Virus record (IMG/VR): IMGVR_UViG_2609460059_000007
Strand: one strand, 5' to 3'
Length of the DNA stretch: 21,966 nt
From: a virus
Taxonomy: Duplodnaviria > Heunggongvirae > Uroviricota > Caudoviricetes
The notes beneath the pieces are model-generated. The model made no database searches and had not been told where the DNA came from. It saw only the letters and a program-made list of their open reading frames with translations. Shown one piece after another: positions 1,276-21,966 of the stretch. Made by a program: the position numbers and the translations under genes. Each line of letters opens with the position of its first letter. Positions within the stretch are counted from its first letter, which is position 1.

Positions 1276-1305
1276 ATACTCTTATAATTTAAAACAGAGG
1301 TCATA

Positions 1306-2187
1306 ATGCAGCATTCAACAGAGAATGAAACTATATTCTTAGGAAATCTATGGATTGACAAAAAAATACCACCATTAGAATATTGTTCATTTGAACGCGC
1401 TTCAAGACTATTAGAATGCGAGATTGATGATTTATTACATCTATACGAAATAGGCGCTTTTAATATCGCATTCAAGGCGGATGGACTTGCAGTTAGATTT
1501 AATGTTAATTTCCTCAATAAAAATCAGAAAATGGAAATTGACTTAATTCATCCCGTATTAACTAATCAATCACTAGAGATGGAATTTTCAACAATATGGT
1601 ATGACCTTAAAGATGATTCCTTTGAACATTTTGAAAATGGGCTTCAAATTATAGGATTTGCCTGTGGTATTTGGTACGCCGATGATATGATAAGTGACAT
1701 AAAAAATGGATTAGCTATAGATCCAGATTATGAATTCAGGCTTAAACCGGTAAAAATACGAGATAATGTTTTGATGGCAACGGCCTCATATGAAGGAAAT
1801 AAGGTCATTGAGATTCCATTTGAAGATCTTCTTATCATGCGAAGAGATTTAGAGTTAATATGGAAATCAGTAAAAACTGGAATTCCTATGCCAAGTTTAC
1901 TTACGAAAAGAATTTCATCTGAACCTAAAATCCCCAAGCGATTAAATAACACTGCTGAGCATCATGCAAAAAATAGGGAGGGGTTATTAAATGCAGCCAT
2001 ATATATATTAGCAAAATACCCAAGCGAATGTCGTGGTGAAAGAAAAGAGATAAGTCCTGAAAAGTGGACTAACGCCATAATTAAACATTTAGGAGAGCTA
2101 CCTCCAATATTTATCACTAATGAACAAGAAATCTTAAGAAAATTACGATTAGCGGTTAATCATGCGGGATTAAAACAAAAGGGGTAG
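1306..2187 (+). CDS. Hypothetical protein, AT-rich orphan cargo gene between int and alpA
   Basis: 293-aa ORF starting 31 bp after int stop with GAGG Shine-Dalgarno 7 nt upstream; codon usage visibly more AT-rich than flanking int and alpA; no motif I can assign. Confidence 0.6.
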   Translation: MQHSTENETIFLGNLWIDKKIPPLEYCSFERASRLLECEIDDLLHLYEIGAFNIAFKADGLAVRFNVNFLNKNQKMEIDLIHPVLTNQSLEMEFSTIWYDLKDDSFEHFENGLQIIGFACGIWYADDMISDIKNGLAIDPDYEFRLKPVKIRDNVLMATASYEGNKVIEIPFEDLLIMRRDLELIWKSVKTGIPMPSLLTKRISSEPKIPKRLNNTAEHHAKNREGLLNAAIYILAKYPSECRGERKEISPEKWTNAIIKHLGELPPIFITNEQEILRKLRLAVNHAGLKQKG

Positions 2188-2289
2188 ACTGAAACAATCT
2201 ACAGGTAGAGTTGATTACACTACCTTCACAGCATTTTGATATCCCCATAGTATCTGCCGTGTTCATTACATAATACGGCAGGTAATTTC

Positions 2290-2505
2290 ATGACATTAAA
2301 AACTTATCCTATCACTGGACATGCCCGCCCACGAGCTACTGCTGACTTTTTGCAAATAAGTACGGTTACTCTCTGGCGCTGGGAAAAGAACAATCCTGAA
2401 TTTCCCAAATCTATACGCATTTCAAAACGGGTATCTGTTTACGATGCACAAGAAATTAGGCAGTGGGTTAAAGCTCAATCAGCAGGATTGGAGGAAGTAG
2501 TATAA
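2290..2505 (+). CDS. alpA: AlpA-family phage transcriptional regulator (excisionase-like DNA-binding protein)
   Basis: 71-aa ORF with the AlpA-type helix-turn-helix signature (FLQISTVTLWRWEKNNPEFPKSIRISKRVSVY); typical position after int in P4-like elements. Confidence 0.85.
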   Translation: MTLKTYPITGHARPRATADFLQISTVTLWRWEKNNPEFPKSIRISKRVSVYDAQEIRQWVKAQSAGLEEVV

Positions 2506-2554
2506 TGACAATATTAACAAAGCTGGGGAGAAAAAAGCCTCCCCAACGTATTAA

Positions 2555-2749
2555 TCAATTCTTTGGTTCTAAACCTCGGCTTTGTAACTCTTTGCGTAGA
2601 ATGCGCTTGATCCAAGCCGCTAGCGATTCATCGCCATCCTGCTGTTGTGCTTGTTCCATCAGTTCACGCAGTTCAGGGTCAAGTCGGAACTGGAATGGCG
2701 GATTCCCACGTCTTTCATTTTTGTGTGTTGACACGTCAATTACACCCAT
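2555..2749 (-). CDS. Arc/MetJ-type ribbon-helix-helix DNA-binding protein, putative satellite repressor
   Basis: 64-aa ORF with beta-strand/helix/helix pattern FQFRLDPELRELMEQAQ...ESLAAWIKRILRKEL characteristic of Arc-like RHH proteins; divergently oriented from the downstream operon, with palindromic operators in the shared intergenic region. Confidence 0.6.
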   Translation of the reverse strand: MGVIDVSTHKNERRGNPPFQFRLDPELRELMEQAQQQDGDESLAAWIKRILRKELQSRGLEPKN

Positions 2750-2783
2750 TGTAATGTATTTATGTGTAATGACACATTACACA
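2728..2783. promoter_or_regulatory. Divergent promoter/operator region with perfect palindrome GTGTAATG-ACA-CATTACAC and related half-sites
   Basis: 21-bp perfect palindrome at 2763-2783; additional CATTGTAATG and TTGAC-AC-GTCAA partial palindromes at 2728-2760; TTGACA at 2728-2733 as possible -35; lies between Arc-like gene start (2749) and Icd-like gene start (2866). Confidence 0.5.
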
Positions 2784-2865
2784 CAGAAAAACAAAATAGC
2801 AACGCCCCGGAGTGTTTGCAGCAGCACCGAGGCGTCTGACCAGCACGTTATATGAGGTAACGAAG

Positions 2866-3042
2866 ATGGCTAAACAGAAGTGTACCTGGTTATTTGCGGC
2901 GATCAACCGCAGTCAACGCAATGCCCGTCCTGTGATGTTAAGGATCACCGCAGATAACGAACGATCAGCGCGGCGCAGACTTGCCCCGGACTATGTACTG
3001 AGCTTTGCCGGGCGCATTCCCTGCGGAGGTGAACATGCGTAA
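2866..3042 (+). CDS. Putative Icd-like host cell division inhibitor (P4 kil/icd positional analog)
   Basis: Internal ATG of listed ORF 2812-3042 preceded by GAGG at 2854-2857; product MAKQKCTWLFAAINRSQRNARPVMLRITADNERSARRRLAPDYVLSFAGRIPCGGEHA resembles, from memory, the Icd-like small proteins of P4-like prophages (L.ITA...ARRRLA...FAGR.P motif). Not verified. Confidence 0.45.
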   Translation: MAKQKCTWLFAAINRSQRNARPVMLRITADNERSARRRLAPDYVLSFAGRIPCGGEHA

Positions 3043-3394
3043 TTATCCGCACCCCGGCGAACGCTGGCAGCATGAACGTGGCTGGACGGTCACGATTATC
3101 CGATTAATAGAAGCCTCGCCCTCTGTGGCGCTGGTTAATCCTGAATTCAGCTGTGAAGTGCTGATACGTCATGACAGCGACAACAAGCTTTCTTCCTGCC
3201 CTCTGGCATGGTTTGAACAGCGGTATACGCGCCTGTTTGATGTACCGCTCTTGAAGCCTGCACCAGCTCCTGCTGGCGGTAGTGGTTCCGGCCCGCTGAC
3301 ACTGCATCCGTCTGTGCTATTTATCCGCTGGCGGGAGCGTAGCATACGGCGTTCTGCTGAGCCTGACGACGGTCACTATTCAAAGTTTCTCTGA
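3035..3394 (+). CDS. Hypothetical satellite protein
   Basis: Internal ATG of listed ORF 3005-3394 with GGAGG at 3025-3029; 8-bp overlap with upstream gene; codon usage consistent with neighbours. Confidence 0.5.
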   Translation: MRNYPHPGERWQHERGWTVTIIRLIEASPSVALVNPEFSCEVLIRHDSDNKLSSCPLAWFEQRYTRLFDVPLLKPAPAPAGGSGSGPLTLHPSVLFIRWRERSIRRSAEPDDGHYSKFL

Positions 3395-3425
3395 CAAAAT
3401 ACCGCTGAAAACGGAGTAATCCACG

Positions 3426-3710
3426 ATGAATATTTCAAACGGGCACAACGGTGCTCAGGGCCACACTTTGCCTGAAAAACACAATACCGGTGCTTTTGCC
3501 TATGGGTTGTCAGAGGACAGTTTCGGAAAGCTGACCCGCGCAAGAAATGCCTGCGACATGCTCCAGCTTCTCTTTTCTGAATACCCGTCTCAGGCCGGAG
3601 CACTGGACGCAGGCTGTGCGCCTGGTGTCGCCGCGCTGATGGAGTACCTGCTGGCAGATTTGACGGATATTGCACACAGCTGCGCACTGATTGAAGGAGG
3701 TGCCAGATGA
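3426..3710 (+). CDS. Hypothetical protein, possible positional analog of P4 epsilon (94 aa)
   Basis: 94-aa ORF; stop overlaps next start (ATGA), suggesting translational coupling into the primase operon; size and position similar to P4 epsilon but no sequence-level recognition. Confidence 0.5.
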   Translation: MNISNGHNGAQGHTLPEKHNTGAFAYGLSEDSFGKLTRARNACDMLQLLFSEYPSQAGALDAGCAPGVAALMEYLLADLTDIAHSCALIEGGAR

Positions 3711-4090
3711 ACCAGCCGCAGGTTTCCATTTTCCCGGTAGAAATGACCACCGCGCTTTACCGGCGGGCTATTGCTTCAGCATGGCGGCAGAAAATGCTGA
3801 ACGAAACTGGCAGTGATCAGTATGGTCCGCACAGCCTGACGGTGGAGCGTATTGAAATGGCCATTGCGCTGCATATCGAGTGCGTACTGATTAACGAGTA
3901 CGGCGAAGTGCAGGGCGCCGCTGCCGCGCTGGCACTGCTGACTGACATGCTGGAGCCGTCACTGCTGACCGCGCCGCCGGTACTGACCGCGCGCGGCTGT
4001 GAAGTGATGGCGGAGATGTACCGCACGCTTCCGGCGGCCTTTGATGACTTCTGCAGTACCGGTGTGACGTTGTATGAGGGGGAAGTATGA
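3707..4090 (+). CDS. Hypothetical protein immediately upstream of primase
   Basis: 127-aa ORF; ATGA overlaps on both sides (3707-3710 and 4087-4090) indicate an operon with the primase. Confidence 0.55.
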   Translation: MNQPQVSIFPVEMTTALYRRAIASAWRQKMLNETGSDQYGPHSLTVERIEMAIALHIECVLINEYGEVQGAAAALALLTDMLEPSLLTAPPVLTARGCEVMAEMYRTLPAAFDDFCSTGVTLYEGEV

Positions 4091-6759
4091 CAATACAGAC
4101 GGTTACGCAGGTTTCAGCCGCCGCACGGGGGAAATGGCCCGTTATTCTGCAGATGCTGCGTATTGATGTACCTGAAAACGGCAGGCACGGTCCCTGCCCG
4201 AAATGTGGGGGCAAGGATCGTTTTCGCCTTGATGACCTTGACGGGCGCGGGACGTGGATCTGCAGCCAGTGTGGCAATGGTGACGGTCTGGATCTGGTTA
4301 AGCTCGTAACCGGTTACAGCGTCAGAAAGGCTGCGCAGGAGGTGGCGCAGATGCTTAATGTGCCGGATATGCAGGAACTGCCTGTTAAGCCTGCCAGACA
4401 AAAAGCCCCTAAACGCGACATGGGTCTTACCGTGGCGGCGCTGATGAAAGAGAGCCACACGGGAGAAAGCGCCTATCTGACAGGAAAAGGGTTCGCCGGA
4501 TACCCGGCCTCTCTGACCGGAAGCGTACAGCATATCAGCGGTAAGGATTTTCCTGCCGGTTCCCTGCTGTTACCACTCACGACCAACACCGGAGCCGTGA
4601 CCGGTGCACAGCTTATCGCCCCGACGGGTGAAAAAAGCATACTGCCCGGCAGCACGATGAAAGGCGCGTTTGTGTCGCTCAGCCCGTTACCGTCTGAACC
4701 ACCGATACAGGTGGTGATTACCGAAGGTTACGCTACGGCGCTGACGGTAAGCCAGCTCACTGCCGGATGCGTAGTGGCTGCCATATCTGCGGGCAACCTG
4801 CCCAATGTGGCGCAGTCGCTGCGGGCACGCTGGCCTGAGGTAAAAATTATCATCGCCGGTGATAACGATTTTCAGGACGGGGGTGAGAATCCCGGCAGAG
4901 CCTTTGCTGAACGGGCGGCAAAAGCTGTTGGCGGCTGGATGACGCTGCCACCAGGAGAGATTAAGGCTGACTGGAATGACTTTCATCGGGAGCACGGTAT
5001 TACCCGTGCCCGTGAAGCCTTTCGCAACGGTCTGGTACTCTGCGGGGAAAGCCGCACGCAACTGCCGCACGGGTTCCGTCTTACCCAGGAATATCTCTGG
5101 TATGAAAAGCAGGTACAGCGCAACGGTGAGACGGAGATCCAGAACGTCAAAATATGCAGCCCGCTGCGCGTGACGGCAATCACCTGCGATGCCGATGGCG
5201 GTAACTTCGGACGACTGCTGGAATGGGAAGATACGTGGGGTGAGTGTCGCCGCTGGGCGATGCCGATGGAAATGCTGAGCGGCAGTGGTGAGGAACTGCG
5301 CCGGGTACTGCTGGTTAACGGGCTGTCTTATATCAGCACCACCGGTGAGGCACGCGCACGCCTGATGGAATATATCTCACTGTGTAAACCGGAACGCCGC
5401 GTGACCTGCGTCAGTCGTACTGGCTGGCATGGTCAGGTTTACGTCCTGCAGGATGAGGTCAGCGGTGAAGGTGCAGAGGGTGTCATTCTCCAGACCACTT
5501 CCGTGCAGGGGCGTGATTTCCGCGTGTCGGGCACAACAGAGGAATGGCGGGAGCATGTATCCCGCTACTGTACCGGCAACTCCCGCGTGGCATTTGCTGT
5601 CAGCCTGGCCTTTGCTGCACCACTGTTACGGCTGGTTGGTATGGACGGCGGCGGCTACCACCTCAAAGGGGAATCGACAGACGGTAAGACCACCACCATG
5701 AAAGCAGCAACCTCCGTCTGCGGCGGGCCTGACTACTGGCAGACGTGGCGGGCAACCGGCAACGCGCTGGAGGGATGCGCCAGCCGCCGCAACGATGCCG
5801 CCATGATGCTTGATGAGATCCGGGAAGTTGACGGACGCGAGGCAGGCAATATCGCCTACATGCTGGCAAACGGTCAGGGCAAGGGCCGTGCCGGTACGGA
5901 CGGTGAGCTGCGTACCCGTAAGCAGTGGCGCCTGTTGTTCTTTTCAACTGGCGAATTGTCTCTGACCGAACATGCGGCAAAGGCCGGTGAGCGTACTTTT
6001 GCCGGGATGGAAGTCAGGATGATCCAGATCCCCAGCGATTCCGGGAAGTTTGGCGTTTTTGAGGAGCTGCACGGCTTCGACAGCGGCAAGGCTCTGGCAG
6101 AGCATCTTGAATGGGCCACGTCCTGCTACTACGGTTCGCCGTTCCGGGAGTGGCTGAAAGCACTGACCGCTGATCTTAACGGACTAACGGCACAGGCAAA
6201 ATCGCTGATGAAGGAATATGCTGCCGCCCTGACTCCGAAAGATGCAGGCAATCAGGTGGGCCGGGCTGTGAACCGCTTTGCACTGGTGGCGATGGCAGGT
6301 GAACTGGCAACCCGTCTGGGTATCACCGGCTGGCCTGAGGGTGAAGCACTGCGGGCAACCCGCGTCTGCCTGAACGCATGGCTGAAAGATCGCGGGCACA
6401 CCGCCAATCAGGAAGATATCGCCGCACTGGAGCAGGTTCGCAGTTTCTTTACCGCGAATCAGTACAGCCGCTTTGCAGACTGGTATGACGAGCGCAACCG
6501 CCCCGGCAATATGGTGGGCTGGCGAAGGGTGGAGAAAGGCAGTACCGCGCAGGGCACGGAAGCTGTCACTACGTTCTATGTCATGCCGTCCGGCTGGAAA
6601 GAAATCTGCAGGGGATTTGACCCGCGCAAGGTGGCGCGTCTGTGCGCAGATCGTGGATACCTGCTGCCCTCCACTGATGGCAAACTCCAGACAACCATTC
6701 GCCCGCCAGAGATGAATCCCCGCAGGCTCTATGTCTTCAACAGCGAGGTGCCGGGTTAA
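4087..6759 (+). CDS. P4 alpha-like primase/helicase (zinc-binding primase domain + TOPRIM-like region + P-loop NTPase)
   Basis: 890-aa ORF; N-terminal CPKCGG...CSQCG zinc-binding motif typical of P4-type primases; Walker A-like GESTDGKTT around residue 525; large size and position before iterons match the P4 alpha replication protein. Confidence 0.9.
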   Translation: MTIQTVTQVSAAARGKWPVILQMLRIDVPENGRHGPCPKCGGKDRFRLDDLDGRGTWICSQCGNGDGLDLVKLVTGYSVRKAAQEVAQMLNVPDMQELPVKPARQKAPKRDMGLTVAALMKESHTGESAYLTGKGFAGYPASLTGSVQHISGKDFPAGSLLLPLTTNTGAVTGAQLIAPTGEKSILPGSTMKGAFVSLSPLPSEPPIQVVITEGYATALTVSQLTAGCVVAAISAGNLPNVAQSLRARWPEVKIIIAGDNDFQDGGENPGRAFAERAAKAVGGWMTLPPGEIKADWNDFHREHGITRAREAFRNGLVLCGESRTQLPHGFRLTQEYLWYEKQVQRNGETEIQNVKICSPLRVTAITCDADGGNFGRLLEWEDTWGECRRWAMPMEMLSGSGEELRRVLLVNGLSYISTTGEARARLMEYISLCKPERRVTCVSRTGWHGQVYVLQDEVSGEGAEGVILQTTSVQGRDFRVSGTTEEWREHVSRYCTGNSRVAFAVSLAFAAPLLRLVGMDGGGYHLKGESTDGKTTTMKAATSVCGGPDYWQTWRATGNALEGCASRRNDAAMMLDEIREVDGREAGNIAYMLANGQGKGRAGTDGELRTRKQWRLLFFSTGELSLTEHAAKAGERTFAGMEVRMIQIPSDSGKFGVFEELHGFDSGKALAEHLEWATSCYYGSPFREWLKALTADLNGLTAQAKSLMKEYAAALTPKDAGNQVGRAVNRFALVAMAGELATRLGITGWPEGEALRATRVCLNAWLKDRGHTANQEDIAALEQVRSFFTANQYSRFADWYDERNRPGNMVGWRRVEKGSTAQGTEAVTTFYVMPSGWKEICRGFDPRKVARLCADRGYLLPSTDGKLQTTIRPPEMNPRRLYVFNSEVPG

Positions 6760-6792
6760 GGCTTTGCGTGAGTCTTATTTATTAAGGGTAAC

Positions 6793-6981
6793 AGGTGAAA
6801 CGGGTGGAACAACCGTATTTTACAGGGCTGAACCTGTTCCACCTTCTGAAATAGTGAGGTGGAACAGATGTAACGCCAGCCAATCCGCTGTTCCACCTTG
6901 TTACCCGCGATGTTCCACCGGTGCAGTGTATATAAATGCCTTATAAAACAAAGCTGTAACACATGTTTCACCTGTTCCACC
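6793..6981. repeat. Iteron cluster: six perfect copies of TGTTCCACC/GGTGGAACA plus two variants, in both orientations; putative alpha-binding replication element (P4 ori/crr-like)
   Basis: Perfect 9-mers at 6803-6811, 6835-6843, 6858-6866, 6889-6897, 6911-6919, 6973-6981; variants GGTGAAAC (6794-6801) and TGTTTCACC (6964-6972); AT-rich stretch tatataaatgccttataaaa at 6929-6950. P4 ori and crr carry TGTTCACC octamer iterons bound by alpha. Confidence 0.65.
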
Positions 6982-7069
6982 GCATCAGGGACATAAAGCA
7001 GACTGAAACAGAGGGCATTTTTATCTGGCTGGCTTTCATAGCCACGTCTGAATAACCGCAAGCGCCCGT

Positions 7070-7125
7070 TGTGCCAGCCACCACACACTGAGCACCGATA
7101 GTGTGCTTGTGTCAGCCACGACACA
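7070..7125 (+). promoter_or_regulatory. Candidate Ogr/Delta-dependent late promoter upstream of sid-like gene: two TGT-N12-ACA dyads
   Basis: TGT(7070-7072)-N12-ACA(7085-7087) and TGT(7108-7110)-N12-ACA(7123-7125); P2/P4 late promoters carry a TGT-N12-ACA element centred near -55; the first dyad is about 80 bp upstream of the ATG at 7160. Confidence 0.4.
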
Positions 7126-7159
7126 ATTGACGTAACGAACCAACCCGACAGGAGAAGTC

Positions 7160-7903
7160 ATGAACAATACCGCAGTAAATAACAACCTTTCCACTTTTCC
7201 GGCTGTAACGCAGCGGGCACTGGAAACCATGAACACAGCCAGAAACGCATGGCTTGAAGCACGTCGTCAGCAGAAAGCGGCAGCGGATAATATTGCGACA
7301 ATCCGCCAGCGTCGCGCTGAAATGGAAGCCACGACGAACACACTGAATGAGGAGTGGCGCACGCTGTTTCGTGAAAGTCAGGGCGTGGTCTCAAAGGAAA
7401 TGAAAAAACTGCGCACGGAAATTGCGCTGGGACGAGAAACGCTTGAGGATTTTGATGAGCTGCTGGCGGCTCAGGAAAGCGAAAATGCACTTTTGCCGCA
7501 GAAAGCTGCAGAATTAGCCGGAAAGTATATCCACGCGCATAACATTCTTGTGGATATTCGCGCAAAACAAATCTGGGAGGATTTTATGCAGTCGCATGGA
7601 AAAGCGCTTATTCAGACGCTGAGCCTGCTTAAATCCACAATGGGCCGGGAAGCCAGTGCCGTTGTGGGTGTGGTGAATTCAGTTAATGACCCGGACACAG
7701 TGCTGAAAGACTTTATTCATAAACATATCACCAGACCGGCTCTGGCTAACGATGCGATGCCTGAGCAGGACCCGGTGTTTAAACTGGCGGGAGTTGCCCC
7801 GGATTATGCGGCGCGTCTGGATTTCAGTAATCAACTCTCTCCGGCAGCTATGCATAAAATTAAGGTTCGTCAGGAACTCGCTGAGAAGGAGAAAGCAGTA
7901 TGA
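7160..7903 (+). CDS. sid: Sid-like capsid size-determination protein (Psu/Sid family)
   Basis: 247-aa ORF with AGGAG Shine-Dalgarno; N-terminal region (RALETMNTARNAWLEARRQQ) and internal FMQSHGKALIQ resemble the Psu/Sid family; first gene of the late module as in P4. Sid versus Psu-paralog assignment is not certain. Confidence 0.6.
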   Translation: MNNTAVNNNLSTFPAVTQRALETMNTARNAWLEARRQQKAAADNIATIRQRRAEMEATTNTLNEEWRTLFRESQGVVSKEMKKLRTEIALGRETLEDFDELLAAQESENALLPQKAAELAGKYIHAHNILVDIRAKQIWEDFMQSHGKALIQTLSLLKSTMGREASAVVGVVNSVNDPDTVLKDFIHKHITRPALANDAMPEQDPVFKLAGVAPDYAARLDFSNQLSPAAMHKIKVRQELAEKEKAV

Positions 7904-8451
7904 CGGCCCGAGGCACGCCTGACCAGGCACTTACCAGTTTTCGGAATGCCCGTATTCTGTGGGCCGGACATAGTGAGAGCCGAAAAGCCGTTGAACAACA
8001 GATAACATCTCTCCTCGCTGCCACAGAAAAACCAGCAGATTATGCCCGACAGCTCGAATTACTGCGGGAACGTCTGGATGTGCTGAAATGGCAAATTAAC
8101 TGTGCTGCGCGCGAATGCATTTACGCGCAGCATTTACTGATGGAGGCCTGCACAGAAGCCGCTCTCAGCAATTTTATGCAGGCGAATGGGGCAGCCCTGA
8201 CATCTGCACTGGCTCCGTTCCTGAAGGGGCGCGGAGGGGTTGACGTTGCGTCCCGTATATTACGCAGTGCTCTGGTTCGCCAGCTGGCAATAACACCGCC
8301 TGAAATTGCCGGGGATTATCGTGAGATCCTGGATGAATCCGGTTTGATACCTGACCCCGGGATGATTCGTGATTGCCAGGACTCTTACACCCCGGCACAA
8401 CATCTGCATTTTCAGCAACGCCTGAATGACATTAACGATATACAGGAGTGA
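7900..8451 (+). CDS. psu: Psu-like polarity suppression protein
   Basis: 183-aa ORF; segments VLKWQINCAARECIYAQHLL, FMQANGAALTSALAPFL and YTPAQHLHF align with my recollection of P4 Psu; start overlaps upstream stop (ATGA). Confidence 0.7.
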   Translation: MTARGTPDQALTSFRNARILWAGHSESRKAVEQQITSLLAATEKPADYARQLELLRERLDVLKWQINCAARECIYAQHLLMEACTEAALSNFMQANGAALTSALAPFLKGRGGVDVASRILRSALVRQLAITPPEIAGDYREILDESGLIPDPGMIRDCQDSYTPAQHLHFQQRLNDINDIQE

Positions 8452-8456
8452 TTTTA

Positions 8457-8729
8457 ATGGCACTTAAATGTCCGGAATGCGGTACAGTTGCACACGCCAG
8501 AACAGCAGCCTATGAAGCTCCGTCAGTTAAACGCTCGTGGTATCAGTGCCAGAATCTGGAATGTTCCTGCACATTTACGGCACTGGAGAGTGTGGATAAG
8601 ATAATCATGAAACCCCGGCGCAATGAACAGGAACCAGACAAATCACCCCCCCCGGTAAAACAACAGCAAACGCTCAATCGCTATGGCTCCGCGTCAAAAC
8701 TGTCAAGCCGTCAGCAGATTCCTGTCTGA
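8457..8729 (+). CDS. ogr: Ogr/Delta-family zinc-finger late transcription activator
   Basis: Product MALKCPECGTVAHARTAAYEAPSVKRSWYQCQNLECSCTFTALESVDKIIMKP matches the P2 Ogr pattern CPxC...AHART...YxCQNxxCSxTF...ESVxxxIxKP; I prefer the ATG at 8457 (AGGAG 9 nt upstream) over the GTG at 8448 used in the ORF track. Confidence 0.85.
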   Translation: MALKCPECGTVAHARTAAYEAPSVKRSWYQCQNLECSCTFTALESVDKIIMKPRRNEQEPDKSPPPVKQQQTLNRYGSASKLSSRQQIPV

Positions 8730-8749
8730 TTAGAAAAAACGCCCACGTA

Positions 8750-8775
8750 ATCCCGGTCGAGTACCGGGATTTTTA
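8750..8775 (+). terminator. Rho-independent terminator after the late module
   Basis: Stem ATCCCGGT (8750-8757) / ACCGGGAT (8763-8770) with 5-nt loop, followed by TTTTT. Confidence 0.7.
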
Positions 8776-8924
8776 ACACCTTTTCCCTGGCTGGCCTGAG
8801 AGCGCATGAGTGCATGTCTATAGCGCATGAAAACGCATGAACCTTATGCACCATTTTTGACGAGAAAGCCCTTGTGTGGTGGCTTCTGAGACGATTTATG
8901 AGGTGCATGAAAACCAGTCTGTTA

Positions 8925-8955
8925 AGCGAAGCGGGCAGGCGTGCGGGGCTGTTCG
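8925..8955. other. Candidate cos region (GC-rich patch resembling P2/186-type cohesive end)
   Basis: GGCGTGCGGGGCT at 8938-8950 resembles the P2-family cohesive-end core GGCGAGGCGGGG / GGCGTGGCGGGG as I recall it; it lies after the psu-delta module where P4 has cos. Imperfect match; not verified. Confidence 0.3.
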
Positions 8956-9147
8956 CATCAACATAAAAATAACGGGCTGATATAGTTATAAAATCAAATG
9001 AACTCTTTTAGTACGACATGGGTATGTGCGCCAGTAGCAACGTCAGCCCCCAAGCTTTCTATTGTTCTTTTCTGTTGTACCATCAATACGTACCGATTAG
9101 CTCCTAAGCATCAATATCAGTTTGAACGTATTGCTTTGAACTAATTT

Positions 9148-9186
9148 TTAGATGATTTTTTTCATTAAAAAATTATAATGTTGTAG
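9148..9186 (+). promoter_or_regulatory. Candidate sigma70 promoter for the cargo operon
   Basis: Perfect -10 hexamer TATAAT at 9174-9179, weak -35 (TTAGAT, 9148-9153), in an AT-rich leader 35 bp upstream of the ATG at 9214. Confidence 0.4.
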
Positions 9187-9213
9187 ATAAAAAGAGAATC
9201 TTATAGAGGCGTT

Positions 9214-10062
9214 ATGTCAAATAAAGTTGATGTTTTTTTGAGCCGAGTTAGCCATGTATCACAGTTTGTATTGGTGGCATTTGCTATTTTTGGATATTTT
9301 TATACAGTAAGACCAATTTACCAAAAGGAACTTTTATCAGAAGAAATTGCAAAAAAAGAAGTTGAATTAAATAAATTAAAAACTGCAATGGAAAACTCCC
9401 AAAAATTTATAGAGAATAATAAAATCTTACGAAAAGAATTGGAGGGAAGCATTGCCAAACTTGATTTACAATACAAAGAATCAGAAGAAAAATTAAATTC
9501 AATAAATTCTGAACTAAGAAAAACTTTAAATGAACTAAATAAACAAAAGACCATTGCCAAAAGAGCGGTCAATGCAAACAACAAGAATCTTGAATCTGTT
9601 TTCTGGGAGAATTTTTCGGGGCTAGTTGGAGTAGTTTATATTTCTAAGAGCACAGATTTTGTGAACAATACACTGGGTGACGCCAAAACAGCCTATAATA
9701 CTCCTAGTAATTTATATATATCTCCTTATGATGCAATTAATGAAGCATTAAAAAATGGCAATCATAACTTTATCTCAAGTTCAGAAAATGTCCCTGAAAA
9801 TATCCGCAACAAAATTCTAGCAAAGATCCGTCGCGCTATTGAAAAAAATAAGATTTCATTAACAAAAAAACCTATCGGTTTTGATGAAAAAATTAATAGT
9901 CTGATAAAAACTATAGAGTCAACTAAGTTACGCAAAAATGAAAACGAAATAATGAAAAATAACACTGCAGAAAGAGAACTATCATCTTATATTTTCCTGA
10001 TAAATGGTCAATCAAGAATCCGCGCCATGGATTTCTTAAAAGACATTCAACATTTAGACTAA
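9214..10062 (+). CDS. Hypothetical membrane-anchored coiled-coil protein (cargo gene A of satellite hotspot)
   Basis: 282-aa ORF, strongly AT-rich; AGAGG Shine-Dalgarno; short N-terminal tail, one hydrophobic helix (VSQFVLVAFAIFGYFYTV), then a K/E-rich heptad-like region; no recognisable catalytic motif. Confidence 0.7.
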   Translation: MSNKVDVFLSRVSHVSQFVLVAFAIFGYFYTVRPIYQKELLSEEIAKKEVELNKLKTAMENSQKFIENNKILRKELEGSIAKLDLQYKESEEKLNSINSELRKTLNELNKQKTIAKRAVNANNKNLESVFWENFSGLVGVVYISKSTDFVNNTLGDAKTAYNTPSNLYISPYDAINEALKNGNHNFISSSENVPENIRNKILAKIRRAIEKNKISLTKKPIGFDEKINSLIKTIESTKLRKNENEIMKNNTAERELSSYIFLINGQSRIRAMDFLKDIQHLD

Positions 10063-10078
10063 TATTGGATATCTTATA

Positions 10079-10783
10079 ATGAATACTAATACTAAATTTG
10101 ATTTATGGTTGATTAGAGTAAGTTACATTGCCCAAGTTGGATTGTTTTTTTTGACAACCTTTACAATATTTTACACAGTAATTCCGATATACCAAAATGC
10201 AAATCTGCAGGAATCAATAGCAAAAAAAGAAATCGAATATAAACAATTACAAGACAAAGAAAAAACTCTATATTTAAAGTTAAGAAAGGAATATTCAAGA
10301 AAATATGTTGTTGATGCAATCTCCCAATGTTCTCCAACAGAAATACTTATGCGTCAACCATCTGAAGATGACAGTAAAAAATCACATGATGTAAGAATGA
10401 AGGAATTAAAAACATTTTTAAACAAAGATATAACCAGTTGCTTTGAAAAAACTTTTTATAGCAACCCTTACATTAAGGAATTAAGAGACACTGATCAACA
10501 AAATATTCTTCTTAAAATTAAAAATTTATCCCCCTCTATAACTAAACTACATGAAAAATATAAAGCAGAATTTGATGACGATAGCAAGTTATTGAATACT
10601 GGAAAAGAAAAATCGACAAGATTAAAAGAGGTGGAAGATTATTTAATAGGAATAGGAGGTTACACAGAAAACAGCAAAAAGGATTTTGAAAACTCATACA
10701 TAGAATCTGGAGCATATGACTTGGTTGTAAGGTATGGTTTTGAAGTCAACGATCTATTTTCCAAAACCATCAGAGACAATTAA
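10079..10783 (+). CDS. Hypothetical membrane-anchored protein, N-terminal paralog of cargo gene A (cargo gene B)
   Basis: 234-aa ORF 16 bp after gene A; N-terminus (IRVSYIAQVGLFFLTTFTIFYTVIPIYQNANLQESIAKKEIEYKQL) parallels gene A (SRVSHVSQFVLVAFAIFGYFYTVRPIYQKELLSEEIAKKEVELNKL) at protein and DNA level; C-terminal halves unrelated. Confidence 0.7.
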   Translation: MNTNTKFDLWLIRVSYIAQVGLFFLTTFTIFYTVIPIYQNANLQESIAKKEIEYKQLQDKEKTLYLKLRKEYSRKYVVDAISQCSPTEILMRQPSEDDSKKSHDVRMKELKTFLNKDITSCFEKTFYSNPYIKELRDTDQQNILLKIKNLSPSITKLHEKYKAEFDDDSKLLNTGKEKSTRLKEVEDYLIGIGGYTENSKKDFENSYIESGAYDLVVRYGFEVNDLFSKTIRDN

Positions 10784-10795
10784 TTAGGTGAACAA

Positions 10796-10823
10796 CCTCC
10801 TCTATTTTAATTAATAGAGGAGG
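10796..10823. terminator. 28-bp perfect palindrome (hairpin), probable terminator of the cargo operon
   Basis: CCTCCTCTATT-TTAATT-AATAGAGGAGG starting 13 bp after the gene B stop; no strong T-tract follows, so intrinsic-terminator assignment is tentative. Confidence 0.5.
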
Positions 10824-11392
10824 TGCTTAAATTATAAAAACATTTCAGGTTTGATTTAGATAACACGCAAATAAAAAACAAACTAATGAAATATATAAAT
10901 TAATTCTTAGGTATAAAATGTTACAATTAGAATATATTTAATTTTTAACTTTAAATCATGATAAATCTAAAAGTAAGCCCCCAAAAAACCTTCAAAACAC
11001 AATACGTCGTGTCTCAACCCCATGATATTTAGGGTTAAACCAAGTTATAGCGCTGACTGGTGAGCGGTTTGAAGTCATTCTGGTATACATAAAATGAAAA
11101 AATACATTGGGAGATATACCCCTGACTTACAGAGCTGGTAACGGTTACCAAGTCGCATTGTGTAATGCGTGGGGTGTAAAATTTTTTGGGTATTTTTTAT
11201 CCAGTAGCAGGTTAGCCCGCCCCCCCTGCTCCTAACGTTCTTTCATTCCTCTTTTCATCATTTTTAGAACGATATAAACAGATGGATCTCTATGGTTTTA
11301 ATGAGTCGATTTTATCGTCTGATGGTATCCATGATGGTACCTAAGAGAGAAAATAAAAAATAATACTTAAAAAACATGAAATTATAAATACT

Positions 11393-11415
11393 TTCGATTC
11401 CTGCAGGGGACACCA
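11393..11415 (+). other. attR-like direct repeat: 23-bp 3-prime end of a tRNA (T-loop through CCA), matching tRNA-Arg(CCU)/argW from memory
   Basis: TTCGATTCCTGCAGGGGACACCA contains the T-loop consensus TTCGATT, the 3-prime T-stem strand, acceptor strand and terminal CCA, but the 5-prime two thirds of a tRNA are absent (upstream is AT-rich non-tRNA sequence). Confidence 0.7.
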
Positions 11416-11852
11416 TCTATCATCCCCCTCGCAATAACCCACTTACAATCAGTGAGTTATCTTAAAATCCTTAGTATAGTCAACCAGTACTTCGATATGT
11501 GAACGCAAATCATCATGCATTCGTGAACTTAACTGGAAACCTCCCCCATTCGATGTCAAAATGACTACCCCAATAAGTTGCCAATAATCAGGCTAATCAA
11601 TACGGGTCAGTCTTGCTGGTCAGTGACCATAAAAATGTCACCTCATATTAGACACAGCAAATAATTGTGTCGATTAAACATACTACCTTCAGCATAACCG
11701 TTCCTGAAAAATTATTATATTCAGTAATCTGAATAAATTACTGGCCTGCTATTTTTCTTAGCAACCATATTTAGCAGCAAGCCAGCAAATCTGAATGATT
11801 ACAGATGCTGGCCTGCTGAATCTCCCTTCTGGAAATCGTCAGAATCTAGTGA

Positions 11853-12383
11853 TTACTTACTTTGTTCTGGTTTCTCTTCATTCTTATTGTGCACTTCCAC
11901 TTTGGGTAACTGATTAAAAACCAGATTTTCTTTTTCAACCAGAGCCATGACTTCTTTGGTGATATCAGCTGACTCGTTATGCGCAAGCACAACACCTGAA
12001 GACAATACAGCAATATTTTTAGGATTGTCTTTTCTCCATGTACCTATGGCATTATCTATCGCACGGGATAACACCATTTTTGCGCTATTTTCCTCAATAA
12101 CATATTGTCGCTCCAGTTTTTGTCTGGCATCAAGAAGCAGCGCCTCTTTATTCGCGTTATCTGCGAATGCTTTTTGCGCATCCTCATAGCCTTTTTCAAG
12201 AATACTCTTAACCTCATTCAGATGCTTTCTGACCATGTCTCCGGCGGCAGACTGATTATAAATAGCATCGATATTAACAACTGCAATTTCTTTTGACTTT
12301 TTCATATAAAAAACACCAGTAAGTACAATCAGCAACAGCAGCACTACTGCATTAACAACAGAAAATTTCATTACAGAACTCAT
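11853..12383 (-). CDS. Skp/OmpH-family periplasmic chaperone-like protein
   Basis: 176-aa ORF; hydrophobic N-terminal signal/anchor then IAVVNIDAIYNQ and C-terminal VLSSGVVLAHNESADITKEVMALV, paralleling E. coli Skp (IAIVNMGSLF...[25 protein letters not shown]) from memory. Confidence 0.65.
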   Translation of the reverse strand: MSSVMKFSVVNAVVLLLLIVLTGVFYMKKSKEIAVVNIDAIYNQSAAGDMVRKHLNEVKSILEKGYEDAQKAFADNANKEALLLDARQKLERQYVIEENSAKMVLSRAIDNAIGTWRKDNPKNIAVLSSGVVLAHNESADITKEVMALVEKENLVFNQLPKVEVHNKNEEKPEQSK

Positions 12384-12400
12384 TATGACAACCCTGAGGT

Positions 12401-12421
12401 GGCAGGAGGTCCCCTCCTGCC
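12401..12421. other. GC-rich hairpin between autotransporter and skp-like gene
   Basis: GGCAGGAGG-TCC-CCTCCTGCC perfect 9-bp stem; no T-tract, so more likely an mRNA stability/partial termination element than a full terminator. Confidence 0.4.
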
Positions 12422-12430
12422 ACTGTGTGA

Positions 12431-15400
12431 TTAGAATATATATTTAATACCCAGCATTGCCTGGGCATCACTGTACCCTTTATCGCCAGCCTGAACACCA
12501 ACATTGCCCCAGACATTCAGGTTATCTGACAATTTACCCTGAACACCCGTTTTGACTTCAGCAATATTTGTAGCTCCGTCCTGACTGAGTGCCGTATTAT
12601 CCATTTTGACACCCCAGCTCCGTGTATTATGGATCCAGTTAACTTCCACAAATGGCTCAAACTGATGCGCCTTATTATCATCAGACGCACTCTTACCTTT
12701 CAGGTAAGTTCTGACGCCCAGACGACTCTGGATATTACCGTCTCCGCTGAGCTGAACTTTCGTGCCATTCTTCTCCGTATGCTCACTGGCTCTTACATTC
12801 ATCCACGTGATCTGGGACTGCGGCTGAATATACCAGTCATAGTGACTACCCTGGCTACCGGTAAATTCGCCGGCTTTAAAGGTATAACCCGCTTCCACTG
12901 AACCGGTAAATCCACGGGATTTCCAGGACTCCGCAGCCAGTTTTTCACCATTAACGGTATTATTAAACCATCCGTACTGGATCCAGGTATCGACATAAGC
13001 CCCGTTGTCATTACCGTCATTCTGCTGCCACGTTCCGTATAAACCGGTGCTGTATCCATTGATCGCACCTTTAGATTTATATCCCGAAAGCGAGGATGTC
13101 GTGGAACTCTTCTCATTTCCATAACCGGCCATAATCCCCAGTTGCAGACGGTCCTGACCGTCAGTCCATTGCGCAATGCTGCCACCCAGTTGCACAACAT
13201 AACGGTTACTTTGCGTATTCAGCTGTGAACTGCTGTCCTTCCAGCGATTATGACCGCCGATATGACGCATCCACATACTTGTTGCTTTCTTCTCACCAGT
13301 AAACACATCGGTATAGTAAGTTTCCCCCTCACGATCGTGCATTCTGATGTTGAACAGCGTGTTGGCTGCCGCTATGTTCGCAATATAAGAGCCCGCTTCC
13401 GGACGATAGACCTTCTGTACAGGTTTATCCGGCGTGGGGTGTGGCTGTGGCTGCGGTTGTGGCTGCGGCTGCGGTTGTGGCTGCGGCTGCGGTTGTGGCT
13501 GCGGTTGTGGTTCTGGCGGCAATTCAGAACGCAGATACCAGTTACCGTCAGTACCACCCGCATTACCTTTATGCAGGAAATATTCCCACGCCCCTGCCAC
13601 CGCACGGTTCTGCAGTCTGAAGTTACCGTCAGACTGCCCACCGACATGCACAATCTCAATGCCGTCAGCGGTCTGAGCCCCCTGGCCCCGGACATTATTC
13701 ACCACCACGCCGGTATCACCGGAGGTGTTACCCGTGACAATCAGTTTGTCAGTGGTAGAAGTATCATCCCCCAGCACGGTATTGATAATTAACGTACCGC
13801 CACCGGTGTAATCGCCATTTACGGTCAGGGTATTTCCTGTCTTACCACCGGCCAGACGAATGACGCCGGTATTGGTCAGTGAGCCAACGGTAAAATTGCC
13901 CACCTCTGCCGTTTCATAACCTGAGAGAGCATTCAGTGATGCCAGTGTTCCCTGGTTATTAACCTGACCCGAAACGGTCCCCAGCCCACTCAGTGTGCCG
14001 CCATTAAGAACATGAATGTTTTTGGATCCTGACAACGTCGCGCCAGCGGCACGGGTGACTGAATCATCACCGACAATCAGAACGCCACTCTCAACCGTGG
14101 TATCACCGGTATAAGTCAGCTCATGATTAATGATCAGATTACCCGCCCCCTGTTTCACCAGAGCGCCGGAGCCAGTAATATCATTCTTCAGTAACCAGTT
14201 TCCACTGGCGGTAAGCCAGGTGACACCATCACTGTCAATCAGCCCGGTGCCCAGGTGTTTTTCATCTGAAGCCCGCAGAGCAGCATCTTTCTGCACACGG
14301 AATTCACCGCTGAAATTACTGTTATCCCCGGAAAGCGTCAGATCAGTGGTGTTCAGTATACCCACTGAACCTTCTCCGGAAAGCGATTTACTCAGGTTAC
14401 TGCTGACTCCGCTACCGTCGGCGATATCAATCGCCAGGCGATCATTAAGGCTTTCAAAGCTGATGGAGCCCTGGCTTCCCAGCCCCTGTGCGCCGTTCAT
14501 TTCAACCAGCGCCCCCTGGGTAAGGCTGGCATTACCGGTAAACCCGATATTGGTGCCATGTACCGTCAGATTGCTGCCCGTGACAGCCAGCGTTCCCTCA
14601 CCGGACAGCACGTTGTTTTCAATGATGCCACCATTATCATCCCCCGGCTGACGCTGCGTGCCGCTGACCGTTAGTACACTACCGCTATCAAGCTGAATGT
14701 GCGCTCCCGTTTCTGTCTGCAGTGCACCGACAGTCTGGCTGTATCCGTTTGTTCTGAAGACGGCATTGCTGGCGACGTTCAGATTACCTGTTGCGCCAAG
14801 TACATTATCATTTGCCATCTGTAATGTGCCGCTGCGCACCAGCGTATCCCCGGTGTAGTTATTACCGCCGTTAGACAGTGTGACAACCTGCCCCGCAGCT
14901 TCGATGGCCAGATCCCCTGCCCCCGTTAACTGTGCGCCAAGATCTGTCTGCAGTCCCTGGGCATTCGCTCTCGGTGTCAGCACCAGCGCTTTATCACCGG
15001 TTCCCTGTAAATCCAGCGACTTCAGCCCATAGCCTATGTACAGTCCGTCACCTTTAATACCGTCGGAGCTTCCCAGCAGCTTATAGTCATAATTTCCCTG
15101 AGCTACAACTTCACCGCCCTGAGTGACATCAAACGTCTGACTGTGAGAAATAGCCTGCCCGTTTTCATCCACCAGTTGCAGTTGCCCGCCAGTACCGGTG
15201 ACGGTACCCGCTGCATTCACCAGCGTGACCAGGGTCTGCGCATCATCCTGCTCCAGCAAATTCTTACGGGTATCAACAGCCGGAATATCATTAATCACTT
15301 CATCTGGCATGGTGACCTGAATTGTGCCTTTCCCCCGGATATCCAGCGTACCTGCAGCAGAGGTTTCAATACTGTTGCTGGCAATGGTATCGCCCGGCAT

Positions 15401-21019: not shown

Positions 21020-21112
21020 GCAATCAATTTCCTGTTATCCCCTTTCCCAATTTCCTTTTGCTTTGCACACCGGGGGGAGACAAACCTTGAGGCACAGGTT
21101 TACAAAATGACC

Positions 21113-21387
21113 CATTTTGACAACATCAATTTAATTAACTACAAATAGCACAAAACGCAGGTAAAAAACCTGCGTATTTATTTTAATTCAGAATATAATT
21201 TTGATTGTTATTTACATTTTGGCTTTATACGCCAGAGATTAAAAAGAAGACAAACCTACCTCTTTATGTGTAGATTGACGCCGCACATTGATCTAAATCA
21301 GTAAATTTAATGTTTTTTATAGAAAAAAATGTTTTTCTATACGAGAATTTCTAAACAAAGATTGGGTTTACATTTTGGGTCAAAATG
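21113..21387. promoter_or_regulatory. Candidate invertible phase-variation switch flanked by 9-bp inverted repeats CATTTTGAC / GTCAAAATG
   Basis: CATTTTGAC at 21113-21121 and its reverse complement GTCAAAATG at 21379-21387, 257 bp apart; both embedded in local palindromes (CAAAATG-ACC-CATTTTG and CATTTTG-GGT-CAAAATG) each preceded by GGTTTAC; right repeat lies inside the last 14 codons of the recombinase gene. Confidence 0.45.
21155..21182. terminator. Hairpin with flanking T/A runs inside the putative switch (possible bidirectional terminator)
   Basis: Stem ACGCAGGT (21155-21162) / ACCTGCGT (21167-21174), 4-nt A loop, followed by ATTTATTTT on the plus strand and preceded by an A-rich run (T-rich on the minus strand). 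Confidence 0.5.
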
Positions 21388-21966
21388 TTGCTTTTTTGCG
21401 TCACCTATCCCCCACATTTTTTCAAATCTCATTGAATTAGAAGCAGTATAAATTACCGTATGCCTGATATTACGATGCCCGAGATAGTCCTGAATAAGAC
21501 GGGTATCCACACCATTATCTGCTAGTGAATAACCACATGCATGGCGTAACATATGTGGATGAACTTTAATATTTAAACCTGCATTTTTACCCGCAGCAGA
21601 AACTATGTTATAAAATCGTTGTCTCGATAATGGTTTTCCTGTTCGGGAAACAAATAACCACGGGTTATCATTGAAATGTTTAACATTTAATGAATTCCTT
21701 TCATTCAGCCAGTTTGTTATTGCAATCACCTCTTCCTTTTGAAGTGGATGGACTGTACTGAATCCATTTTTTATCCGTTGAATATATATTTTTTCTGTAG
21801 TTAGTTCTAAATCCGACAACTGCAGAGATAAGAGCTCACTAACACGCAGACCATGAAAATAAGCCAATAAAATCATGCAAACATCGCGTGAAGAGCAACT
21901 CTTTTGTTTTACAGATTGAAGTAGTAAATTAATTTCATGATGCGTTAAAAATTTTCTGTTTTGCAT
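21337..21966 (-). CDS. FimB/FimE-family tyrosine recombinase (DNA invertase)
   Basis: 209-aa ORF; FLTHHEINLLL...HGLRVSEL...HPHMLRHACGYSLADNGVDTRLIQDYLGHRNIRHTVIYT closely parallels FimB as I recall it; start codon is the last three bases of the window (reverse complement). Resembles orphan fim-like recombinases IpuA/FimX. Confidence 0.85.
   Translation of the reverse strand: MQNRKFLTHHEINLLLQSVKQKSCSSRDVCMILLAYFHGLRVSELLSLQLSDLELTTEKIYIQRIKNGFSTVHPLQKEEVIAITNWLNERNSLNVKHFNDNPWLFVSRTGKPLSRQRFYNIVSAAGKNAGLNIKVHPHMLRHACGYSLADNGVDTRLIQDYLGHRNIRHTVIYTASNSMRFEKMWGIGDAKKQHFDPKCKPNLCLEILV

Follow-up and report, generated by a model that had tools for sequence, protein, structure and literature searches.

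A giant autotransporter gene and a downstream Skp/OmpH-fold gene form a conserved mobile cassette with a covarying intercistronic hairpin

We analyzed a stretch of 21,966 nucleotides (nt) filed as a tailed-virus record in IMG/VR (IMGVR_UViG_2609460059_000007, hereafter the window), in which a small gene for a protein resembling the chaperone Skp lies directly behind the gene for the giant autotransporter UpaE. A megablast search with positions 11700-12500 returned 100% matches in uropathogenic Escherichia coli (UPEC) and related strains, including ABU 83972. At these matches RefSeq names the large gene "phase-variable autotransporter adhesin UpaE" and the small open reading frame (ORF) either "OmpH family outer membrane protein" or "hypothetical protein". 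This is the UPEC locus ipuA-ipuS-ipuR-upaE, known from Battaglioli et al. 2018 (PMC6083910), and searches of complete genomes also found it in CFT073, ATCC 25922 and Nissle 1917. A first guess, the hyxRAB locus of pathogenicity island PAI-X, was rejected, as the window carries the ipu locus and the hyxB gene of PAI-X encodes the autotransporter UpaB. All ipu-locus genes in the window lie on the minus strand, and the features of the locus are as follows (positions are those of the window; aa, amino acids; bp, base pairs).

11393-11415, plus strand: last 23 nt of a tRNA-Arg, attR of the neighboring P4-like satellite (blastn against strain 1105)
11853-12383, minus strand: Skp/OmpH-fold gene (176 aa) with an ATG start; its presumed client gene upaE lies upstream
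12384-12430, minus strand: 47-nt spacer between upaE and the Skp-like gene, including an AGGG Shine-Dalgarno-like motif
12399-12423, minus strand: intercistronic hairpin with an 11-bp perfect stem and a 3-nt loop
12431-20374, minus strand: upaE, a phase-variable AIDA-type type Va autotransporter adhesin (2647 aa; Pfam, NCBIfam, RefSeq name, PMC6083910)
20399-21019, minus strand: ipuR, a LuxR/GerE-type regulator (Pfam GerE), first cistron of the unit
21108-21382, no strand assigned: ipuS invertible promoter element with 7-bp inverted repeats TGACCCA/TGGGTCA
21337-21966, minus strand: ipuA, a tyrosine-type DNA invertase (209 aa; NCBIfam 249 bits, above cut-off; RefSeq IpuA)

The start codon of ipuA forms the end of the window, the 3' end of ipuA contains the distal TGACCCA/TGGGTCA repeat of ipuS, and a PacI site is found at 21131-21138. 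Because ipuA is full length at 209 aa, which is the published definition of the OFF state, ipuS is in the OFF orientation here. In strain 1105 the gene order is yfdC, tRNA-Arg, OmpH-like gene, upaE, LuxR-type regulator, ipuA, ipuB and dsdC, which puts the locus between yfdC and dsdC, at tRNA-Arg (argW), and makes it island-encoded. The outer edge of the ipu island is the tRNA-Arg remnant at 11393-11415, located 437 nt past the stop codon of the Skp-like gene. The position of the Skp-like gene is thus not that of the housekeeping bamA-skp-lpxD cluster, as the gene has upaE and tRNA-Arg for neighbors in the ipu island associated with argW. An earlier reading of the window, made from its sequence alone (the sequence-only reading), had proposed a second, island-encoded Skp/OmpH homolog co-oriented 47 nt behind a giant autotransporter, and the coordinates, the predicted fold and the island context in strain 1105 all bear this out.

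The Skp-like ORF begins 47 nt past the stop codon of the 2647-aa autotransporter. Its N-terminal MSSV(M/I)KF is kept in homologs, one of which has Ile at the second Met, and since the stretch is conserved even where that Met is replaced, we take the first ATG (MSSVMKF...) as the true start; the AGGG motif lies 8 nt 5' of this codon. Pairwise dN/dS (ratio of nonsynonymous to synonymous substitution rates) for the gene ranges from 0.14 to 0.38 in pairs whose dS reaches as much as 2.2. The ORF is present at 259 places in 253 of 5426 complete E. coli genomes and is full length in 251 of the 253; no near match was found in the other 5173 of the 5426 genomes searched, where the K-12 strain itself was not looked at.

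Public databases already name the exact protein "OmpH family outer membrane protein", "Skp family chaperone" or "Chaperone protein Skp", so the Skp homology itself is not new. By sequence the likeness is real but weak. The protein scores 17 bits against the NCBIfam Skp equivalog (cut-off 237), and a single-sequence phmmer search of the Protein Data Bank (PDB) gave no relevant Skp match. The relatives P0036 and P0037 do pass the Pfam OmpH cut-off with 33.3-33.4 bits, and a profile built from 18 family members places three "Outer membrane protein H" entries at the top of the PDB matches (E ~0.02). Alignment to E. coli Skp with hhalign covers the whole domain with a probability of 70% and an E value of 4e-5, and the body-strand motifs IAVVN.. 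and ..DIT.E.. align; the E. coli Skp sequence behind this alignment and behind the isoelectric point comparison below was entered by hand and is unverified against a database. No defense family was matched by the protein in PADLOC.

By predicted fold the relationship is clear. AlphaFold2 monomer models reached a predicted local distance difference test score (pLDDT) of 76 with 7 sequences, and a pLDDT of 87 with a predicted template modeling score of 0.71 with 18 sequences. In the models an N-terminal helix and a strand lead into a long alpha-hairpin (residues 46-72 and 79-119), which is followed by a strand and a short helix; the fold thereby has the small beta body made of N- and C-terminal strands and the long alpha-hairpin arm that define the Skp fold. 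The nine best Foldseek matches are all Skp, the SkpA protein of the T9SS (type 9 secretion system) or a Caulobacter OmpH-like protein. The overall layout is a hydrophobic segment at residues 7-27, a Skp body of beta-strands and alpha-hairpin at 31-150, a motif at 156-162 and a charged tail.

The contexts of relatives were collected from exact-protein look-ups plus plasmid and viral collections. A conserved-stretch search of species-representative genomes gave 41 pattern matches with one alignment, none of which was confirmed as a relative, and a broader alignment held no usable conserved stretch. The relatives with an autotransporter nearby, and those on short contigs, are listed here with their identity to the Skp-like protein of the window.

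Salmonella diarizonae (L002), 63% identity: preceded by an invertase, a GerE regulator and a 2632-aa autotransporter, spacing 47 nt
Escherichia sp. (L004/L005), an avian pathogenic E. coli IncY plasmid (L022) and four IMG/VR contigs of 30-103 kb (L024-L027), 78-83% identity: PapI/PapB-type regulators, an autotransporter of ~2641 aa, the same hairpin, 47 nt, the Skp-like gene, then a small GerE regulator
Metagenome (L007), 65% identity: same arrangement, spacing 47 nt
Metagenome (L015), 48% identity: AIDA-type autotransporter before the Skp-like gene
Metagenome (L008), 45% identity: AIDA-type autotransporter before the Skp-like gene
Yersinia ruckeri plasmid (L017), 31% identity: 1675-aa PATR/AC_1 protein, spacing 24 nt
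Metagenome (L009), 30% identity: 1530-aa autotransporter, with one gene between
Yersinia ruckeri plasmid (L023), 29% identity: fragments of an S6-peptidase autotransporter of the SPATE (serine protease autotransporters of Enterobacteriaceae) type, and barrel remnants
Short contigs (L014 and L021), 44% and 30% identity: uninformative context

Six of the eight informative independent lineages are linked to an autotransporter, which is far above expectation for a random neighbor. Across the relatives, the identities of the autotransporter C-terminus and of the Skp-like protein fall in step (91/80, 92/65, 88/63, 75/48, 72/45 and 28/31%). Within E. coli, the last 2 kb of upaE is found in the same numbers as the Skp-like ORF, 259 places in 253 of the 5426 genomes. 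The pairing suspected in the sequence-only reading is not accidental. The pair behaves as a cassette: its two members stay joined although the regulators in front of them change from an invertase switch to a Pap-type switch, and although the replicon may be a chromosomal island, a phage-plasmid or a plasmid. This conserved mobile two-gene cassette has the autotransporter first, then the hairpin and then the Skp-like gene. A further suggestion, that the chaperone goes with an unusually large passenger, is not supported, since some partners are smaller autotransporters (1530 and 1675 aa) and one is a protease of the SPATE type.

Several features of these relatives are recorded here in their own right. 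Neighbors of the cassette in L004/L005, L022 and L024-L027 include a C1 repressor, a terminase and Phd/Doc, and L005, L022 and L024-L027 are P1-like (IncY) phage-plasmids. Their UpaE-like cassette (L005 1-11200, L022 1-12200, L024-L027) is under PapI/FaeA and PapB, a different phase-variation system with no invertase switch. In the two Y. ruckeri plasmids (L017 6332-7827 and L023 2706-10039) the Skp-like gene lies behind the autotransporter and ahead of a SapC-family gene, and in Y. ruckeri p17Y0159.1 a fragmented SPATE-type partner lies upstream with a canonical terminator between it and the Skp-like gene.

The spacer between the two genes contains a GC-rich hairpin with arms at 12399-12409 and 12413-12423 (GUGGCAGGAGG / CCUCCUGCCAC), forming an 11-bp perfect stem closed by a 3-nt loop. 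It begins 7 nt past the upaE stop codon and ends 15 nt before the start codon of the Skp-like gene. The sequence-only reading had noted this hairpin but counted a stem of 9 bp, and its range of 11853-12421 drops the last 2 nt of the element, which ends at 12423. The predicted fold energy is -24.3 kcal/mol (z = -3.0 versus shuffles), and a perfect stem of at least 9 bp arose in just 17 of 20000 shuffles of the spacer.

The 47-nt spacing is identical in L002, L005, L007 and L024-L027. Throughout Escherichia, Salmonella and the phage-plasmids the stem is invariant, save for one A-to-C change in Salmonella L002 that leaves a single-sided mismatch; the three loop bases vary by lineage, and neighboring synonymous sites are saturated (dS 1.4-1.6). 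In more distant cassettes the stem sequence changes and the pairing persists. The stem of L015 (GTTGCCGGAGA / TCTCCGGCAAC) carries 3 compensatory double changes and that of L008 (GTGTGGTAGGG / CCCTACCACAC) carries 6, both with 11 of 11 Watson-Crick pairs, no single-sided changes and an unchanged position, 6-7 nt past the stop codon. A script did the counting of pairs, and for L008 the alignment followed structure, as MAFFT had put it out of register. The covariation draws on three stem types and holds no G-U evidence for the strand. Because compensatory changes keep a perfect 11-bp stem at a fixed place, we regard the hairpin as a selected structure, most simply of RNA; that it is under structural selection is borne out by these changes together with the shuffles. 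Among the Y. ruckeri plasmids, L017 has no hairpin at the equivalent position and L023 has a canonical hairpin followed by a T-run.

Two familiar classes of hairpin were considered and rejected. An intrinsic terminator is not indicated, as no U-tract follows the stem (the next bases are CUCAGGGUUGUC) and a terminator scan did not call the hairpin. A dispersed repeat of the repetitive extragenic palindromic (REP) or bacterial interspersed mosaic element type is excluded by its distribution: the hairpin 35-mer occurs once in the window and, among the 5426 complete E. coli genomes, exclusively in the 253 that carry the locus (262 places, about once each). No Rfam family was matched in the window. 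As a separate observation, the region downstream of the Skp-like stop codon (11700-11852, minus strand) contains several stem-loops, including CAGCAGGCCAGC...GCUGGCUUGCUG; it has no clear hairpin plus U-tract terminator.

Stem-loops between cistrons of one mRNA set differential expression within operons, as with the malE-malF REP sequence, the papB-papA segment of pap and the Rhodobacter puf operon. The upaE/Skp-like hairpin resembles these in being a stable GC-rich hairpin without a U-tract between cistrons of what is probably one unit, here kept by compensatory change; unlike the REP case it is neither a REP sequence nor dispersed, being unique to its locus. By analogy with these operons, the hairpin is most likely an RNA-level decay barrier that would uncouple the stability, and hence the ratio, of the upaE and skp-like mRNA segments, and the suggestion of the sequence-only reading that it sets stoichiometry appears plausible. 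The two genes are co-oriented across a 47-nt gap with neither a canonical terminator nor promoter signals above chance, and the Skp-like gene is probably co-transcribed with upaE through the structured intercistronic RNA.

The Skp-like protein departs from E. coli Skp in its export signal, its charge and its C-terminus. By inspection, its N-terminus is a 21-residue hydrophobic helix without a lipobox and without an AxA site, with at best a weak signal-peptidase site at L-T-G23. Close homologs have F at position -3, and P0028 has a good A-G-A site. An exhaustive profile search gave 215 matches at E < 1e-3, of which 140 distant representatives were passed through a crude motif classifier; by this classifier ~72 carry a lipobox-like motif and ~51 a signal of the signal-peptidase-I type, which suggests that members of the subfamily are located in the periplasm and are mostly tethered to a membrane. 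For the E. coli protein the simplest reading is a variant that keeps its signal as an anchor or is cleaved poorly. The subfamily is thus probably held at a periplasm-facing membrane, through lipid attachment in many of the relatives and, in the protein of the window, through a Sec signal that is not cleaved or is cleaved poorly. In the metagenomic L015 (2772-2830) a T7 run separates the N-terminal hydrophobic segment of the Skp-like protein from the remainder, which is read in another frame; this break may be either a sequencing error or a slippage-prone tract.

At the other end of the protein lies the motif F156-x-x-L-P160-x-V162, followed by a low-complexity charged tail (residues ~153-176; window 11853-11925). 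P160 and V162 of FxxLPxV are invariant in 18 sequences, down to 27% identity, and the motif has no counterpart in E. coli Skp. In the deeper AlphaFold2 model residues 151-160 have a mean pLDDT of 94, which goes down to 75 at residues 161-170.

The partner protein UpaE scores above the Pfam cut-offs for ESPR (47.5 bits), PATR (29.5), AC_1 (92.0) and Autotransporter (134.7). Its type Va architecture begins with an ESPR signal and continues with a beta-helical passenger, then PATR and AC_1, then a (PQ)11 linker before the beta-barrel. The (PQ)11 linker, at 13445-13510 on the minus strand, lies between the autochaperone domain and the beta-barrel, and BLAST matches to a 1970-nt query covering it range between strains from 1940 to 1994 nt, suggesting a repeat-length polymorphism in UpaE. 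Published work on the locus describes ipuR-upaE as a two-gene operon, and the gene downstream is neither mentioned nor measured (PMC6083910; Russell et al. 2019, PMC6458436).

Based on these data we favor, with a probability of roughly 0.55, the explanation that the ORF at 11853-12383 is a functional gene encoding a divergent member of the Skp/OmpH chaperone superfamily, and that its product would act as a cassette-encoded, membrane-tethered accessory holdase that aids or buffers secretion of a large autotransporter and is probably co-transcribed with upaE. The cassette would here be the distal part of the phase-variable ipuS-ipuR-upaE unit. With ipuS ON, read-through from upaE, modulated by the hairpin, would supply extra holdase, probably tethered at the inner membrane, which would capture the 271-kDa ESPR-bearing UpaE polypeptide on its exit from SecYEG and keep it unfolded and protected from proteases until the beta-barrel assembly machinery (BAM) and the translocation and assembly module (TAM) take over. 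The hairpin would set the ratio of the two products by stabilizing the upaE segment at its 3' end or, after processing, the skp-like segment at its 5' end. The result would be a higher yield of displayed adhesin, a sparing of the housekeeping Skp/SurA/DegP pool, or both, with the Skp-like factor auxiliary and not obligatory. Skp contacts autotransporter passengers early in the periplasm and binds large clients multivalently, and ESPR signals delay release from the inner membrane. An inner-membrane-tethered holdase would fit such an early step.

A number of observations weigh against this explanation. The match of the protein itself to Pfam OmpH (PF03938; 26.6 bits, E 8e-6) stays below the gathering score of 32.4. 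KKSK directly after the hydrophobic segment is contrary to the positive-inside rule for an anchor with N-in/C-out topology, and such a charged stretch is uncommon in front of an exported domain. The soluble domain is acidic, with an isoelectric point of 5.5-6.4 compared with 9.5 for mature, basic Skp, and the UpaE passenger is likewise acidic at 4.5; since both partners are acidic, Skp-style electrostatic capture is doubtful. Two distant lineages with ~30% identity (L012/13 and L018-20) have no autotransporter nearby. In the canine strain 1105 (L001 12732-20663) upaE is annotated as a pseudogene with an internal stop, and the Skp-like gene there is intact, with no difference from the copy in the window. 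Reverse transcription quantitative PCR along the unit shows strong polarity, with ipuR up ~1600-fold and upaE ~33-fold (Russell et al. 2019, PMC6458436), and for this reason the distal Skp-like gene may be poorly expressed from the ipuS promoter. Finally, Battaglioli et al. 2018 (PMC6083910) cloned upaE alone on a plasmid in K-12 MS427, with a reverse primer ending at the stop codon, and this clone yielded a 271-kDa, surface-located adhesin that forms biofilm and binds extracellular matrix. The Skp-like gene is thus dispensable for display, at least under overexpression with housekeeping Skp present. Of the private chaperone put forward in the sequence-only reading, what survives is the pairing, conserved across Escherichia, Salmonella, phage-plasmids, Yersinia plasmids and metagenomes down to ~30% identity; a strict requirement is contradicted by the display of UpaE from upaE alone. 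That reading had named beforehand, as an outcome that would speak against it, display that is unaffected by loss of the gene, and the K-12 result goes part of the way there.

The same K-12 result is in keeping with a generic envelope-stress buffer, in which an extra holdase raises the total periplasmic capacity for any very large beta-helical protein on the Sec/BAM route with no recognition of UpaE. Mixed partners (AIDA-type autotransporters of 1530 to 2647 aa plus a SPATE-like protease) and the relatives that stand alone agree with such a role. We nevertheless consider it unlikely, as the Skp-like protein co-diverges with the C-terminal domain of its partner and the pair persists under three regulatory contexts, as the conserved FxxLPxV absent from Skp suggests a specific docking contact, and as the acidic surface is unlike that of the generalist Skp. 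Quite unlikely in our judgment is a SkpA-like structural adaptor, a scaffold that orders one segment of UpaE (the ESPR region, the PQ linker and the barrel N-terminus being candidates) or docks the autotransporter at BAM/TAM or the inner membrane. For this no partner is known, type Va secretion is not known to use a translocon component of its own, and UpaE display in the absence of the gene argues against an essential structural role. That the ORF is a hitch-hiker or is decaying, with no current function in E. coli, is barely credible: UpaE is displayed without it, databases contain truncated variants and published work has ignored it, but the dN/dS values, its intactness in 251 of 253 genomes, synteny kept over deep divergence and a confident AlphaFold2 model all speak for a maintained gene.

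A different kind of alternative concerns the palindrome, which as DNA would be a 25-bp perfect inverted repeat serving as an operator for a dimeric helix-turn-helix regulator, such as one of the LuxR/GerE type, and would control an internal promoter of the Skp-like gene or form a transcription roadblock. A GerE-type regulator does adjoin the cassette, lying upstream of it in E. coli and Salmonella but downstream of it in the phage-plasmids and in L021, and symmetric operators likewise show paired half-site changes. However, three differing stems in related cassettes, each perfect over exactly 11 bp, GC-rich and closed by a free loop of 3-4 nt, are the signature of an RNA stem. Promoter-like sites near the hairpin show no excess over chance between genes (6 versus 4.6 expected), and the hairpin plus T-run of Y. 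ruckeri L023 occupies the equivalent position as a canonical terminator. We regard a DNA-level role as very unlikely and a palindromic GerE operator as a weaker alternative to the RNA decay barrier.

A bolder form of the favored explanation, that of an accessory holdase, is possible but is offered tentatively. Here the cassette would be an undescribed two-gene type Va module on enterobacterial mobile elements, in which a large autotransporter travels with its own inner-membrane-tethered, acidic Skp-fold chaperone, FxxLPxV recognizes the client or BAM/TAM, and the covarying hairpin sets dosage.

Comparison with known systems places the protein between several precedents. The housekeeping holdase Skp of E. 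coli (HlpA/OmpH, PDB 1SG2/1U2M) shares ~16-22% identity with the Skp-like protein, whose arms match ~22 fewer profile positions. Compared with Skp, the protein lacks an AxA site and has the additional FxxLPxV and charged tail, and its gene is on a mobile cassette behind an autotransporter whereas skp is in the bamA-skp-lpxD cluster. Trimeric autotransporters have accessory envelope factors, SadB for SadA in Salmonella and TpgA for AtaA in Acinetobacter. The Skp-like gene would resemble these as a small envelope protein encoded in the operon of a type V adhesin that improves display without being absolutely required; SadB and TpgA differ in lacking the Skp fold and in working for type Vc adhesins. 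Among Skp proteins dedicated to one pathway, the closest precedent is SkpA, a structural part of the Extended Translocon of the type 9 secretion system in Bacteroidota (PDB 8GL8; Lauber et al. 2024, PMC10994853). SkpA belongs to another phylum and another secretion system and its gene is not adjacent to substrates, whereas the Skp-like gene is linked to a type Va autotransporter by adjacency, a link known from genes alone. The Caulobacter OmpH-like protein CC_1914 (PDB 4KQT; 14% identity) is a structural-genomics protein with no known autotransporter linkage.

Positions 1-11415 of the window are a P4-like satellite prophage inserted at tRNA-Arg and adjoining the ipu island. Its genes are the following.

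1-1275: integrase
2290-2505: AlpA
4087-6759: primase/DUF927
7160-7903 and 7900-8451: two Psu-like genes
8448-8729: Ogr/Delta

The junction between satellite and ipu island in the window has an exact match in one complete E. coli genome only (CH4811). Two adjacent cargo ORFs on the plus strand (9214-10062 and 10079-10783; 282 and 234 aa) each encode a hydrophobic N-terminal segment and, behind it, a long stretch of charged, K/E-rich sequence, as judged by eye from the translations, and neither matched Pfam or PADLOC. P4-like satellites carry anti-phage hotspots, and by analogy these two ORFs may be an undescribed defense pair.

The gene and its family name are already known from databases, and UpaE and ipuS from publications. 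The conserved mobile cassette, the tethering, acidic surface and C-terminal motif of the subfamily, and the covarying hairpin appear to be new within the literature searched; that search, which most subscription journals lay beyond and which included a 2022 review of SurA- and Skp-like proteins, found no autotransporter-dedicated Skp paralog.

In the textbook account, type Va autotransporters are secreted by general factors only (Sec, Skp/SurA/DegP and BAM/TAM). A co-inherited Skp paralog would be the first candidate for a client-linked periplasmic chaperone of this class. If the bolder form with a two-gene module is true, classical "auto"-transporters of the UpaE kind would have a dedicated, co-inherited periplasmic partner, much like two-partner or chaperone-usher systems. 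Co-expression of the Skp-like gene could improve autotransporter-based surface display when the passenger is very large. Kidney colonization by UPEC is affected by the phase-variable adhesin UpaE, whose locus is also carried by Nissle 1917, ATCC 25922, CFT073 and ABU 83972, and an overlooked third gene could alter how phenotypes of the "two-gene operon" are read. For the chaperone family, a subfamily that is probably tethered, acidic and equipped with a motif of its own widens what Skp-fold proteins may do and echoes the use of T9SS SkpA as a structural translocon component.

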